The position numbers were made by a program, and so were the translations under genes. A DNA stretch of 64,000 nucleotides from Escherichia coli (GTDB lineage: Bacteria > Pseudomonadota > Gammaproteobacteria > Enterobacterales > Enterobacteriaceae), in the NCBI RefSeq assembly GCF_002854065.1, contig NZ_CP024147.1; one strand, given 5' to 3'. Under the pieces are notes generated by a model. It saw nothing but the letters and a program-made list of their open reading frames with translations, did not search any database and had not been told where the DNA came from. Of this stretch, positions 2,122 to 62,021 are shown piece by piece. Positions within the stretch are counted from its first letter, which is position 1; each line of letters opens with the position of its first letter.

Positions 2122-2435
2122 CCTCTTCTCCTTTCGAGAGTCAGTGGTACGTCTGAAATCGGTCAGACGCGATGCATTGCTCTGAAAGCTTAGACGGGAA
2201 ATATGAGTTTGCTGTGACCATGAAATTTTTCGACTGAACGAAGCGTATGAAATTTGTGTTAGATCAATAAAAACAATCAGATGAGATTAATCATCTCTTC
2301 AGTATTAGCGTTATGAATGAGTAATATAAATCGATAATACCGCCGTTGCGATATGCGCGTATTTTCACCCATTGACAATGTTTTTGGCGGTGGCATGATG
2401 CGCATGAAATTTGAACTTCCTCACGGTTTTAATTC

Positions 2436-3584
2436 ATGTCCACGTATACCCGGCCTGTCATGCTTTTGCTGTCTGGCCTGCTTTTGTTGACTCTGGCGAT
2501 CGCGGTGTTAAATACACTCGTGCCGCTTTGGCTCGCCCAGGAACACATGTCCACATGGCAGGTAGGCGTTGTCAGCTCATCCTATTTTACCGGCAACCTT
2601 GTCGGTACATTGCTGACAGGGTATGTCATTAAATGCATTGGCTTTAACCGCAGCTATTATCTGGCCTCCTTCATTTTTGCCGCTGGCTGTGCCGGCCTTG
2701 GCCTGATGATTGGTTTCTGGAGCTGGTTGGCGTGGCGTTTTGTCGCGGGCGTCGGCTGTGCCATGATTTGGGTAGTCGTTGAGAGCGCGCTGATGTGCAG
2801 TGGGACGTCACGTAACCGTGGGCGTTTGCTTGCTGCGTATATGATGGTTTATTACGTGGGAACGTTTTTAGGCCAGTTACTGGTCAGCAAAGTCTCAACC
2901 GAGCTGATGAGCGTATTGCCGTGGGTTACAGGTTTGACGTTGGCAGGGATCTTACCGCTGTTGTTTACGCGTGTCCTGAATCAGCAGGCTGAAAACCATG
3001 ATTCGACGTCAATTACGTCAATGCTAAAACTCCGTCAGGCGCGGCTTGGCGTGAATGGCTGCATTATCTCAGGAATCGTTCTGGGATCTCTATATGGCCT
3101 GATGCCGTTGTACCTCAATCACAAAGGGGTGAGCAATGCCAGCATTGGTTTCTGGATGGCGGTACTGGTCAGTGCGGGTATCCTCGGACAATGGCCGATT
3201 GGACGTCTGGCGGATAAGTTTGGTCGACTGCTGGTGTTGCGTGTTCAGGTCTTTGTCGTCATTCTCGGCAGTATCGCGATGCTTAGCCAGGCGGCGATGG
3301 CCCCAGCGTTATTCATCCTCGGTGCCGCTGGCTTTACGCTATATCCGGTGGCGATGGCCTGGGCTTGTGAGAAAGTTGAACATCATCAACTGGTGGCGAT
3401 GAACCAGGCCTTACTGTTGAGCTATACCGTGGGAAGTCTGCTTGGCCCGTCATTTACCGCTATGCTAATGCAGAATTTCTCCGATAATTTATTGTTTATC
3501 ATGATCGCCAGCGTATCGTTTATCTATTTGCTGATGCTGCTTCGCAACGCCGGTCATACGCCGAAACCCGTTGCTCACGTGTAA
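2436..3584 (+). CDS. ycaD: MFS transporter
   Basis: 382-aa multi-helix hydrophobic ORF, recognised as YcaD. Confidence 0.85.
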
Positions 3585-3594
3585 ATGAATTCAA

Positions 3595-3632
3595 GCAGAG
3601 TGTGAACTTACTGTTTCACACTCTGCTTTTTT
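3595..3632 (+). terminator. intrinsic terminator after ycaD
   Basis: GCAGAGTGTGAA-loop-TTCACACTCTGC followed by TTTTTT. Confidence 0.7.
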
Positions 3633-3793
3633 GTTTCTTCTATCTGACTTGCTTTTTTCCAAATTTTATTCGTTTAAAAATAAAATGTGCAGCAGGTTAT
3701 AATTTTGCATTTCGCTATTTCCGCACTTCTTATTTGCCGCGCATAATCCCTCGTTTTACAGATGCCCCTTTAATTTTGGCGAAGGATTTGTCT

Positions 3794-5224
3794 ATGGCTG
3801 GGAATGTTCAGGAAAAACAGCTGCGATGGTACAACATTGCGCTGATGTCTTTTATCACTGTCTGGGGTTTTGGCAACGTTGTTAATAACTATGCCAACCA
3901 GGGGCTGGTGGTTGTTTTTTCATGGGTGTTTATCTTTGCGCTCTATTTCACACCTTATGCGCTAATTGTTGGACAGTTAGGCTCGACCTTCAAAGATGGG
4001 AAGGGCGGGGTCAGTACCTGGATTAAACACACGATGGGACCCGGACTGGCTTACCTCGCCGCGTGGACCTACTGGGTGGTGCATATTCCCTATCTGGCAC
4101 AAAAACCCCAGGCAATACTGATTGCGCTCGGTTGGGCGATGAAAGGCGACGGTTCGCTAATCAAAGAATATTCAGTCGTAGCGTTACAGGGGTTAACGCT
4201 GGTGCTGTTTATCTTCTTTATGTGGGTTGCTTCACGCGGTATGAAATCGCTGAAAATCGTCGGTTCTGTGGCAGGGATTGCGATGTTTGTTATGTCGCTC
4301 CTGTATGTGGCGATGGCGGTAACCGCGCCTGCGATTACTGAAGTGCATATTGCGACCACAAACATTACCTGGGAAACGTTCATTCCTCATATCGACTTTA
4401 CCTACATTACCACTATTTCAATGCTGGTTTTCGCGGTTGGCGGAGCAGAGAAGATTTCTCCTTACGTTAATCAAACGCGCAACCCAGGAAAAGAATTTCC
4501 AAAAGGGATGCTATGCCTGGCGGTGATGGTTGCGGTTTGTGCCATTCTGGGCTCACTGGCGATGGGGATGATGTTTGACTCGCGTAATATCCCGGATGAC
4601 TTAATGACTAACGGTCAATATTACGCTTTTCAGAAGCTGGGCGAGTATTACAACATGGGTAATACTTTAATGGTGATTTACGCCATTGCGAATACCCTGG
4701 GACAAGTAGCTGCGCTGGTATTCTCGATTGATGCCCCGCTTAAAGTGCTATTAGGTGATGCTGACAGCAAATATATTCCAGCCAGTTTATGTCGTACCAA
4801 CGCTTCTGGTACGCCCGTTAATGGCTATTTTCTGACCCTGGTGCTGGTGGCAATTCTGATTATGCTGCCGACTCTCGGCATCGGTGATATGAACAATCTC
4901 TATAAATGGCTGTTGAATCTTAACTCGGTAGTGATGCCGCTGCGTTATTTATGGGTATTTGTTGCATTTATTGCAGTCGTTCGCCTGGCGCAGAAATATA
5001 AACCAGAATATGTCTTTATTCGTAATAAGCCTCTGGCAATGACCGTCGGGATTTGGTGTTTTGCCTTTACCGCCTTTGCCTGTTTGACGGGGATCTTCCC
5101 GAAAATGGAAGCCTTCACTGCAGAGTGGACCTTCCAGTTGGCGCTGAATGTTGCAACGCCGTTTGTGCTGGTAGGATTAGGACTGATATTCCCGCTGCTG
5201 GCGCGTAAAGCGAATAGTAAATAA
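3794..5224 (+). CDS. ycaM: APC-family amino acid transporter (putative)
   Basis: ORF track extends to 3602; internal ATG at 3794 (MAGNVQEKQLRWYNIALMSF) gives the 476-aa protein; multi-pass membrane protein. Confidence 0.8.
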   Translation: MAGNVQEKQLRWYNIALMSFITVWGFGNVVNNYANQGLVVVFSWVFIFALYFTPYALIVGQLGSTFKDGKGGVSTWIKHTMGPGLAYLAAWTYWVVHIPYLAQKPQAILIALGWAMKGDGSLIKEYSVVALQGLTLVLFIFFMWVASRGMKSLKIVGSVAGIAMFVMSLLYVAMAVTAPAITEVHIATTNITWETFIPHIDFTYITTISMLVFAVGGAEKISPYVNQTRNPGKEFPKGMLCLAVMVAVCAILGSLAMGMMFDSRNIPDDLMTNGQYYAFQKLGEYYNMGNTLMVIYAIANTLGQVAALVFSIDAPLKVLLGDADSKYIPASLCRTNASGTPVNGYFLTLVLVAILIMLPTLGIGDMNNLYKWLLNLNSVVMPLRYLWVFVAFIAVVRLAQKYKPEYVFIRNKPLAMTVGIWCFAFTAFACLTGIFPKMEAFTAEWTFQLALNVATPFVLVGLGLIFPLLARKANSK

Positions 5225-54122: not shown

Positions 54123-54587
54123 ATGTATAGAACTCACCGACAACACAGCCTGTTAAGCTCTGGTGGCGTGCCATCGTTTATTGGTGGGCTGGTGGTGTTT
54201 GTGTCGGCAGCGTTCAATGCACAAGCTGAAACCTGGTTCGATCCAGCCTTTTTCAAAGATGATCCCTCAATGGTGGCCGATTTGTCTCGTTTCGAAAAAG
54301 GACAAAAAATAACGCCAGGGGTTTATCGTGTCGATATTGTTCTGAATCAGACAATTGTAGATACGCGCAACGTCAATTTTGTTGAGATAACGCCAGAGAA
54401 GGGGATTGCCGCCTGTTTGACGACTGAAAGCCTGGATGCAATGGGCGTGAATACTGATGCATTTCCGGCTTTTAAACAACTGGACAAACAAGCGTGTGCG
54501 CTATTGGCGGAGATTATTCCGGATGCCAGCGTAACTTTTAATGTGAATAAACTCCGTCTGGAAATTTCAGTACCGCAAATTGCCATC
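54123..54587 (+). pseudogene. elfC: fimbrial usher, N-terminal fragment interrupted by IS2
   Basis: ORF starts MYRTHRQHSLLSSGG... and is stopped by TAG 54588-54590, the first three bases of the inserted IS2. Confidence 0.8.
54583..54587. repeat. IS2 target-site duplication (CCATC), left copy
   Basis: CCATC immediately precedes the IS2 end and recurs at 55919-55923. Confidence 0.8.
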
Positions 54588-54629
54588 TAGACTGGCCCCC
54601 TGAATCTCCAGACAACCAATATCACTTAA
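54588..54629. repeat. IS2 terminal inverted repeat (transposase-proximal end)
   Basis: Imperfect match to the reverse complement of 55877-55918, sharing TCCAGACA and ATCACTTAA blocks. Confidence 0.6.
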
Positions 54630-54678
54630 ATAAGTGATAGTCTTAATACTAGTTTTTAGACTAGTCATTGGAGAACAG

Positions 54679-55044
54679 ATGATTGATGTCTTAGGGCCGG
54701 AGAAACGCAGACGGCGTACCACACAGGAAAAGATCGCAATTGTTCAGCAGAGCTTTGAACCGGGGATGACGGTCTCCCTCGTTGCCCGGCAACATGGTGT
54801 AGCAGCCAGCCAGTTATTTCTCTGGCGTAAGCAATACCAGGAAGGAAGTCTTACTGCTGTCGCCGCCGGAGAACAGGTTGTTCCTGCCTCTGAACTTGCT
54901 GCCGCCATGAAGCAGATTAAAGAACTCCAGCGCCTGCTCGGCAAGAAAACGATGGAAAATGAACTCCTCAAAGAAGCCGTTGAATATGGACGGGCAAAAA
55001 AGTGGATAGCGCACGCGCCCTTATTGCCCGGGGATGGGGAGTAA
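54679..55044 (+). CDS. insC: IS2 OrfA / InsC (HTH DNA-binding)
   Basis: 121 aa [56 protein letters not shown]... Confidence 0.9.
54996..55002 (+). promoter_or_regulatory. A6G slippery heptamer (programmed -1 frameshift site of IS3-family transposase)
   Basis: AAAAAAG at the insC/insD overlap, where the insD frame opens. Confidence 0.6.
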
Positions 55045-55907
55045 GCTTAGTCAGCCGTTGTCTCCGGGTGTCGCGTGCGCAGTTGCACGTCATTCTCAGA
55101 CGAACCGATGACTGGATGGATGGCCGCCGCAGTCGTCACACTGATGATACGGATGTGCTTCTCCGTATACACCATGTTATCGGAGAGCTGCCCACGTATG
55201 GTTATCGTCGGGTATGGGCGCTGCTTCGCAGACAGGCAGAACTTGATGGTATGCCTGCGATCAATGCCAAACGTGTTTACCGGATCATGCGCCAGAATGC
55301 GCTGTTGCTTGAGCGAAAACCTGCTGTACCGCCATCGAAACGGGCACATACAGGCAGAGTGGCCGTGAAAGAAAGCAATCAGCGATGGTGCTCTGACGGG
55401 TTCGAGTTCTGCTGTGATAACGGAGAGAGACTGCGTGTCACGTTCGCGCTGGACTGCTGTGATCGTGAGGCACTGCACTGGGCGGTCACTACCGGCGGCT
55501 TCAACAGTGAAACAGTACAGGACGTCATGCTGGGAGCGGTGGAACGCCGCTTCGGCAACGATCTTCCGTCGTCTCCAGTGGAGTGGCTGACGGATAATGG
55601 TTCATGCTACCGGGCTAATGAAACACGCCAGTTCGCCCGGATGTTGGGACTTGAACCGAAGAACACGGCGGTGCGGAGTCCGGAGAGTAACGGAATAGCA
55701 GAGAGCTTCGTGAAAACGATAAAGCGTGACTACATCAGTATCATGCCCAAACCAGACGGGTTAACGGCAGCAAAGAACCTTGCAGAGGCGTTCGAGCATT
55801 ATAACGAATGGCATCCGCATAGTGCGCTGGGTTATCGCTCGCCACGGGAATATCTGCGGCAGCGGGCTTGTAATGGGTTAAGTGATAACAGATGTCTGGA
55901 AATATAG
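55002..55907 (+). CDS. insD: IS2 OrfB / InsD (DDE transposase catalytic domain)
   Basis: 301-aa ORF in the -1 frame relative to insC ([34 protein letters not shown]...). Confidence 0.9.
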
Positions 55908-55918
55908 GGGCAAATCCA
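55877..55918. repeat. IS2 terminal inverted repeat (distal end)
   Basis: Reverse complement matches 54588-54629 imperfectly. Confidence 0.6.
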
Positions 55919-59120
<3,202 letters not shown>

Positions 59121-60924: not shown

Positions 60925-61010
60925 TTTTTTTGCCGCAGGTCAATTCCCTTTTGGTCCGAACTCGCACATAATACGCCCCCGGTTTGCACACCGGGAATCC
61001 AGGAGAGTTC

Positions 61011-62021
61011 ATGTACTACCCCTTCGTTCGTAAAGCCCTTTTCCAGCTCGATCCAGAGCGCGCTCATGAGTTTACTTTTCAGCAATTACGCCGCATTACC
61101 GGAACACCGTTTGAAGCACTGGTGCGGCAGAAAGTGCCTGCAAAACCTGTTAACTGCATGGGCCTGACGTTTAAAAATCCGCTTGGTCTGGCAGCCGGTC
61201 TTGACAAAGACGGGGAGTGCATTGATGCGTTAGGCGCGATGGGATTTGGATCGATCGAGATCGGTACCGTCACGCCACGTCCACAGCCAGGTAATGACAA
61301 GCCGCGTCTCTTTCGTCTGGTAGATGCCGAAGGTTTGATCAACCGTATGGGCTTTAATAATCTTGGCGTTGATAATCTCGTAGAGAACGTAAAAAAGGCC
61401 CATTATGACGGCGTCCTGGGTATTAACATCGGCAAAAATAAAGATACGCCAGTGGAGCATGGCAAAGATGACTATCTGATTTGTATGGAAAAAATCTATG
61501 CCTATGCGGGATATATCGCCATCAATATTTCATCGCCGAATACCCCAGGATTACGCACACTGCAATATGGTGAAGCGCTGGATGATCTCTTAACTGCGAT
61601 TAAAAATAAGCAAAATGATTTGCAAGCGATGCACCATAAATATGTGCCGATCGCAGTGAAGATCGCGCCGGATCTTTCTGAAGAAGAATTGATCCAGGTT
61701 GCCGATAGTTTAGTTCGCCATAATATTGATGGCGTTATTGCAACCAATACCACACTCGATCGTTCTCTGGTTCAGGGAATGAAAAATTGCGATCAAACCG
61801 GTGGCTTAAGTGGTCGTCCGCTTCAGTTAAAAAGCACCGAAATTATTCGCCGCTTGTCACTGGAATTAAACGGTCGCTTACCGATCATCGGTGTTGGCGG
61901 CATCGACTCGGTTATCGCTGCGCGTGAAAAGATTGCTGCGGGTGCCTCACTGGTGCAAATTTATTCTGGTTTTATTTTTAAAGGTCCGCCGCTGATTAAA
62001 GAAATCGTTACCCATATCTAA
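61011..62021 (+). CDS. pyrD: dihydroorotate dehydrogenase (quinone)
   Basis: Start [21 protein letters not shown] (336 aa). Confidence 0.9.

Follow-up and report, generated by a model that had tools for sequence, protein, structure and literature searches.

The 64,000-nucleotide stretch of Escherichia coli DNA analysed here (hereafter, the window) contains elfC, the usher gene of the fimbrial operon elfADCG, which is split after its nucleotide 465 by an insertion sequence of 1331 bp at positions 54588-55918 (+ strand). The 5' fragment of the interrupted gene, comprising its first 465 nt, lies at 54123-54587 (+) and the 3' fragment at 55919-58059 (+). The element is bounded by a 5-bp direct repeat, CCATC, with its left copy at 54583-54587 and its right copy at 55919-55923, and a single CCATC is found at the corresponding empty site of strain 100416.

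Two overlapping genes fill most of the element. The first, insC (orfA; 54679-55044, +), encodes a 121-aa protein that serves as the helix-turn-helix (HTH) repressor and as the N-terminal part of the transposase, while the second, insD (orfB; 55002-55907, +), lies in the -1 frame relative to insC and encodes the 301-aa catalytic part. At their junction stands the slippery heptamer A_AAA_AAG (54996-55002, +), a -1 ribosomal frameshift site, followed by a short spacer and a long hairpin. Further downstream of the operon, a PyrD leader (Rfam RF02373, 97.9 bits) is found at 60943-61016 (+), and its position fits the core-genome order mukB ... pepN, ssu, elf, pyrD.

Structure and completeness of the IS2 element

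The reference set for alignment comprised the IS2 copies of E. coli K-12 MG1655, six in all and identical to one another. Over the full length, 1330/1331 bases of the window element are identical to each of them, and the sole difference is at 55193 (element position 606, +), where C stands here and A in K-12; this base is the last of insD codon 64, which encodes proline in either case (CCC vs CCA). The copy shares with K-12 IS2 (IS2A/D/F/H/I/K) its length, the InsC, InsD and OrfAB proteins, both terminal repeats, the A6G frameshift window and the length of the target duplication, and differs from it in one synonymous base and in its insertion site in elfC.

The left inverted repeat (IRL, 42 bp; 54588-54629, +) has the same sequence as the IRL that PMC3299598 and PMC3219604 mark by brackets in their oligonucleotides, and the right inverted repeat (IRR, 41 bp; 55878-55918, +) the same as the bracketed IRR of PMC3299598. 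More broadly, the footprinting oligonucleotides of PMC3299598 agree at every base with the first 58 nt of the element (IRL plus 16 nt) and with its last 41 nt (IRR). The outer end of IRL is 5'-TA and the terminus of IRR is CA-3'. The two ends of IS2 are known to be functionally asymmetric, with IRR acting as the donor end and IRL as the recipient (PMC3219604, PMC3299598). IRR carries the outward-facing -35 hexamer TGGAAA of the junction promoter and IRL supplies the -10 hexamer TAGACT; when IRR, a 1-bp spacer and IRL were joined in silico, the product read TGGAAA, 17 nt, TAGACT. This reconstruction agrees with the minicircle junction promoter as published, for which a 17-nt spacer is mandatory (PMC3299598).

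Just inside IRL lies the weak extended -10 promoter PIRL, TGATAGTCT, at 54635-54643 (+; element bp 48-56, positions from PMC3299598), within a sequence identical to the published IRL+16 oligonucleotide; its initial TGAT falls at element bp 48-51 (54635-54638), matching PMC3299598. The OrfA operator, placed from the same source, is directly 5' of PIRL at 54626-54635 (element bp 39-48). A generic promoter and terminator scan reported neither PIRL nor any terminator within the element; for PIRL this result is uninformative, because an extended -10 promoter that has no -35 element escapes such a scan.

The encoded proteins match IS2 throughout. InsC contains Pfam HTH_Tnp_1 (1.8e-19) and InsD contains HTH_21, rve and rve_3, and the IS2-specific and family-level models of NCBIfam score above their cut-offs: 723.9 bits for NF006918, IS2 transposase TnpB (cut-off 597), 238.8 bits for NF006928, IS2 repressor TnpA (cut-off 229), and 279.5 bits for NF033516, IS3 family transposase (cut-off 160). 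InsC and InsD are exact matches to 'Transposase InsC/InsD for insertion element IS2A/D/F/H/I/K', and the sequences of OrfAB, InsC and InsD all have exact matches in public collections under IS2 names, including the RefSeq 'IS3-like element IS2 family transposase'. Within the fused OrfAB of 409 aa, an HTH and a leucine-zipper-like region accompany a DDE core. The catalytic residues of the fusion, D240, D306 and E342 (numbered as in PMC3219604), are encoded by GAC (55395-55397, +), GAT (55593-55595, +) and GAG (55701-55703, +), respectively, and the wild-type residue is present at all 23 of the 23 sites mutated in that study.

An earlier, sequence-only reading of this DNA had taken the element to be complete, with its terminal repeats present, and had proposed a full-length alignment to reference IS2 that might reveal point differences in the catalytic residues or in the repeats. 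That alignment bears the reading out: neither repeat departs from its published sequence, D240, D306 and E342 are in place, and the one differing base is synonymous. The boundaries, the ends, the reading frames and the CCATC duplication likewise agree with a complete element. All the sequence features by which IS2 (IS3 family, IS2 group) is recognised are found together here, namely a size of about 1.3 kb, the specific IRL and IRR, overlapping reading frames with orfB in the -1 frame, an A6G window in phase, the DDE triad, protein scores above the model cut-offs, a 5-bp duplication and asymmetric ends.

Duplications of 5 bp also flank five of the six K-12 IS2 copies and all seven of the other insertions that we found in the elf operon. 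The single K-12 copy that has no matching 5-bp duplication is IS2H (2996361-2997691), whose flanks read GTTTAT and AACTTG, which suggests that one of its ends was rearranged or deleted after insertion.

Frameshift site and downstream hairpin

Around the heptamer the codons of insC read GCA (54994), AAA (54997), AAG (55000) and TGG (55003), so that the zero frame divides the motif as A_AAA_AAG, the phasing that tandem -1 slippage needs. The heptamer has the X_XXZ_ZZN zero-frame form of bacterial -1 frameshift sites (as defined in PMC4066793) and corresponds to the A6G window described for IS2 (PMC3219604). The open stretch of the insD frame begins at 54984, and the GTG annotated as its start (55002) coincides with the last base of the heptamer, giving an overlap with insC of 54984-55044 between the open frames and of 55002-55044 between the annotated genes. 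The earlier claim that the heptamer lies at the insC/insD overlap is accordingly confirmed, with the refinement that the motif is inside the open-frame overlap and at the 5' edge, not in the middle, of the annotated one; that both genes are full length with no internal stops also holds, at 121 and 301 aa with exact matches to InsC and InsD. A -1 slip after AAG joins insC to insD to give the 409-aa OrfAB. The IS2 frameshift product goes back to a primary paper by Hu et al. 1996. For the present analysis, the experimental basis of IS2 frameshifting was drawn from two secondary sources, PMC3219604 and PMC4066793.

Bare heptamers abound in the window, so the motif alone means little: AAAAAAG occurs 26 times compared with 15.7 expected from shuffles, a count reached by one shuffle in 100. 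It is the abundance of such heptamers, along with the presence of a GTG start at 55002 in the open reading frame listing, that would favour an incidental motif, with insD translated alone from this GTG to yield the active enzyme. We consider this extremely unlikely. A frameshift-type context, under the thresholds used, surrounds only the copy at 54996-55002, where a zero-frame open reading frame of 121 codons lies upstream, a -1 open reading frame of 301 codons lies downstream and the zero-frame stop follows 15 codons on. Furthermore, OrfB alone would be devoid of the end-binding N-terminal HTH (Pfam; domain map in PMC3219604), and an A-run is kept at the same position in IS2-group relatives down to about 69% identity (A_AAA_AAA in L008 and L009).

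The heptamer is separated by the 6-nt spacer UGGAUA (55003-55008, +) from a hairpin of 72 nt (55009-55080, +), a probable frameshift stimulator on the grounds of its folding, its conservation in relatives and the rules known for the IS3 family. Across 11 aligned elements, five of the six spacer positions do not vary, and the remaining one holds A or T. The basal stem consists of 9 bp, GCGCACGCG / CGCGTGCGC, in which 55009-55017 are paired with 55072-55080. The 84-nt stretch 3' of the heptamer folds into the hairpin with a minimum free energy of -38.3 kcal/mol (z = -2.1 relative to shuffles); for wider stretches of 80 and 171 nt the fold is indistinguishable from that of shuffles (z = -0.1 and -0.3), and only the stretch delimited by the hairpin stands out. 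[quoted passage not shown]

Conservation was assessed by aligning this region with plasmid-borne relatives in the IS2 group whose nucleotide identity was 95, 81 or 66-69%. The basal stem is paired in 100% of alignment cells, with nine distinct sequences among the 11 aligned and identity down to 66%. Its changes amount to one compensatory replacement of C:G by U:A, seen in an ISEc36-like pair and in L011, and one G:U wobble, a small covariation sample of one compensatory pair in 11 sequences (nine distinct) within a doubly coding, protein-conserved sequence. The apical helix is lineage-specific, with 64.8% of cells paired in relatives; it was dropped as a candidate conserved structure, and conservation is claimed for the basal stem only. 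Rfam offered no counterpart: the scan of the whole window at gathering thresholds returned only the PyrD leader, and a permissive scan of the insertion sequence returned only chance snoRNA and lncRNA matches, with no curated family covering the IS2 frameshift hairpin. From its spacing, stability and conservation, the hairpin most likely pauses the ribosome and raises the frequency of slippage.

No upstream Shine-Dalgarno-like (SD) stimulator is conserved in the alignment of IS2-group relatives, a feature that is optional for membership among frameshift sites. This agrees with Table S4 of PMC4066793, where the entry 'SD/Structure N/Y' for IS2 insC denotes an SD that is not conserved and a downstream structure that is. 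The same table lists two IS2 insC clusters as proven cases of -1 frameshifting with reduced synonymous variability.

In principle, OrfAB could be made mainly through slippage of RNA polymerase on the A run, with an A added to the mRNA, instead of through ribosomal frameshifting. Some IS3-family elements do use transcriptional realignment (PMC3711429), one added A (A7G) gives the fused frame experimentally (PMC3219604), and A7 runs are present in relatives L006-L009. The run in the window, however, has six A's, whereas slippage is reported for runs >7 (PMC3711429); the heptamer stands in the exact phase for tandem slippage, the conserved hairpin follows at a spacing typical of ribosomal stimulators, and IS2 is listed as a true case of -1 ribosomal frameshifting (PMC4066793). 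We regard a mainly transcriptional origin of OrfAB as very improbable and favour the ribosomal -1 frameshift.

The motif itself varies among the more distant relatives. ISEc36-like elements read CAA AAA AAG, L008 and L009 carry A_AAA_AAA at the position of the heptamer, and L010-L013 (66-69% identity) have no A6G heptamer, their TCG CGA AAA TGG offering an A_AAA tetramer only, while the basal stem and the spacer are kept. Tetramer motifs are known from IS3-family elements (PMC4066793). ISEc36 and the more distant IS2-group elements, which are found on enterobacterial plasmids, thus share with the window copy the gene layout and the basal stem past the shift site, and differ in nucleotide sequence (66-81% identity) and in the motif (A7G, A_AAA_AAA or the A_AAA tetramer only).

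Comparison with better-known frameshift systems places IS2 among its relatives in the same manner. IS911 and IS3 have the same A_AAA_AAG motif, the same logic of OrfA, OrfB and OrfAB, and copy-out-paste-in transposition through a circle with a junction promoter (PMC3219604, PMC4066793). They differ in the stimulators, IS911 having both an upstream and a downstream one and IS3 a pseudoknot (PMC4066793), whereas IS2 has a long hairpin and no conserved upstream SD; IS2 also stands apart in its IRL, which has a TA terminus and serves solely as recipient in step I (PMC3219604, PMC3299598). The dnaX gene of E. coli likewise combines A_AAA_AAG with a downstream hairpin (PMC3711429). There, in contrast to IS2, an upstream SD-like stimulator is present, the shift reaches about 50% and the product is shorter, whereas the IS2 shift is of low frequency and gives a longer product (PMC3219604, PMC3711429, PMC4066793).

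Insertion into elfC and the elf operon

A direct check of strain 100416 (NZ_CM128593.1) showed the exact site unoccupied, with CCATC present once, and this strain and CUWW06 match the flanks of the insertion site only, not the insertion sequence. The 24,588 bases directly upstream of the element are 100% identical to both strains. Because an empty site is present in genomes that are 100% identical over this 24.6-kb flank, the elfC insertion is, judged from the sequence, recent.

In strain 100416, elfC (2324-4923) is annotated as a frameshifted pseudogene even though it carries no insertion sequence. On the basis of this annotation, the elfC allele of the lineage may already have been inactive before IS2 inserted. 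A separate observation concerns the right-hand junction, where a mechanically called open reading frame of 725 aa (55882-58059, +) takes a GTG within the right end of IS2 as its start codon and runs on, with no change of frame, into the 3' fragment of elfC. Its product, were it translated, would be an usher with neither signal peptide nor N-terminal domain, and the reading frame is probably meaningless.

An independent IS2 insertion in elfC is present in strain TW14425 (NZ_CP127265.1, 1788-3118), 1 bp from the site in the window, in the opposite orientation and with the duplication GCCAT. Two insertions 1 bp apart (post hoc p about 0.01) suggest a local IS2 target preference at GCCATC. Six more independent insertions of IS2 or IS2-like elements were found in the elf operon, each with a 5-bp duplication: one upstream of elfA, one at the 5' end of elfD (about 40 nt in, by the annotation of strain 100416), two in elfC and two in elfG. 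Two of these six are 100% identical to the window element.

The operon as a whole was considered as a hotspot and rejected as such, since eight insertions in about 6 kb are not above a rough random expectation (about 19,700 chromosomal places, 5,426 genomes); only the 1-bp coincidence of the two elfC sites is unusual. In K-12 MG1655, copy IS2I (3186096-3187426) interrupts yqiG, which is also a usher gene of the chaperone-usher class. It is conceivable, if rather doubtful, that the paired elfC sites represent a true IS2 micro-hotspot, or that they reflect, together with the six other elf insertions and IS2I in yqiG, recurrent selection against chaperone-usher fimbriae.

Predicted transposition and its implications

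The element matches 24,934 places in 5,426 complete E. coli genomes, about 19,700 of the IS2 places being chromosomal. The top matches are 100% identical, adjoin unrelated genes and lie on chromosomes as well as plasmids; exact full-length copies occur in roughly 260-390 replicons, as estimated by sampling the ranking at even steps. Movement of IS2 is well documented for K-12, whose six copies gave rise to 71 new insertions in mutation-accumulation lines, or about 0.4e-4 per genome per generation (PMC5009759), and an independent mutation-accumulation study put the estimated rate of IS2 transposition at 7.7e-6 (PMC3871371).

Taken together, with a probability of roughly 0.92, positions 54588-55918 hold an IS2 (IS3 family, IS2 group) that is complete and canonical, was recently inserted into elfC with duplication of CCATC and is predicted to produce OrfAB by -1 frameshifting. 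The phase of the heptamer, the 0/-1 layout of the reading frames, the OrfAB fusion, the undamaged ends and the duplicated target can be read directly from the sequence. In the proposed sequence of events, a ribosome translating insC would slip back by one base at A_AAA_AAG, with both lysine tRNAs re-pairing on AAA AAA, and reading would resume from 55002 in the insD frame to complete OrfAB; the hairpin, 6 nt downstream, would slow the ribosome and favour the slip. IS2 frameshifting is of low frequency, which leaves OrfA as the main product and OrfAB as a rare one, and OrfA represses the weak PIRL just inside IRL (PMC3219604, PMC3299598). OrfAB acts by a copy-out-paste-in pathway, in which it cleaves at the CA-3' end of IRR and joins this end beside IRL, so that a figure-of-eight arises first and a minicircle after it; in the minicircle the abutted ends constitute the strong junction promoter, which drives production of transposase for integration with a 5-bp duplication (PMC3219604, PMC3299598).

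The window copy is very probably competent for transposition, because all cis and trans parts are present and match functional references. In this respect, too, the sequence-only reading is supported as far as sequence can reach, with the ends, the catalytic triad, the reading frames and the heptamer all intact. A copy of intact appearance might nevertheless be inert in this setting, owing to its base difference, to read-through from the elf operon into IRL, or to host factors. Competence is, after all, deduced here from its parts; the element and the elfADC operon point the same way, which could let transcription from outside run into IRL, and base 55193 differs from the K-12 copies. That difference, however, is synonymous, and the exact variant recurs at numerous independent sites, two of them elsewhere in the elf operon, which indicates that it has been moving; the insertion into elfC is itself recent. 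We therefore think it unlikely that the copy is inert, and retain the prediction of an active element.

The element, its A6G window, its asymmetric ends, its transposition pathway and its hairpin are already known and belong to textbook IS2. The frameshift window, the ends and the pathway have been studied for decades, and their presence here matters mainly for annotation. For records of this strain, the analysis implies an IS2 copy that is predicted to be live, and an Elf (YcbQ) fimbrial usher that has been knocked out by a very recent insertion. An intact IS2 can be the source of further insertional mutations, deletions and promoter effects in the genome that carries it.
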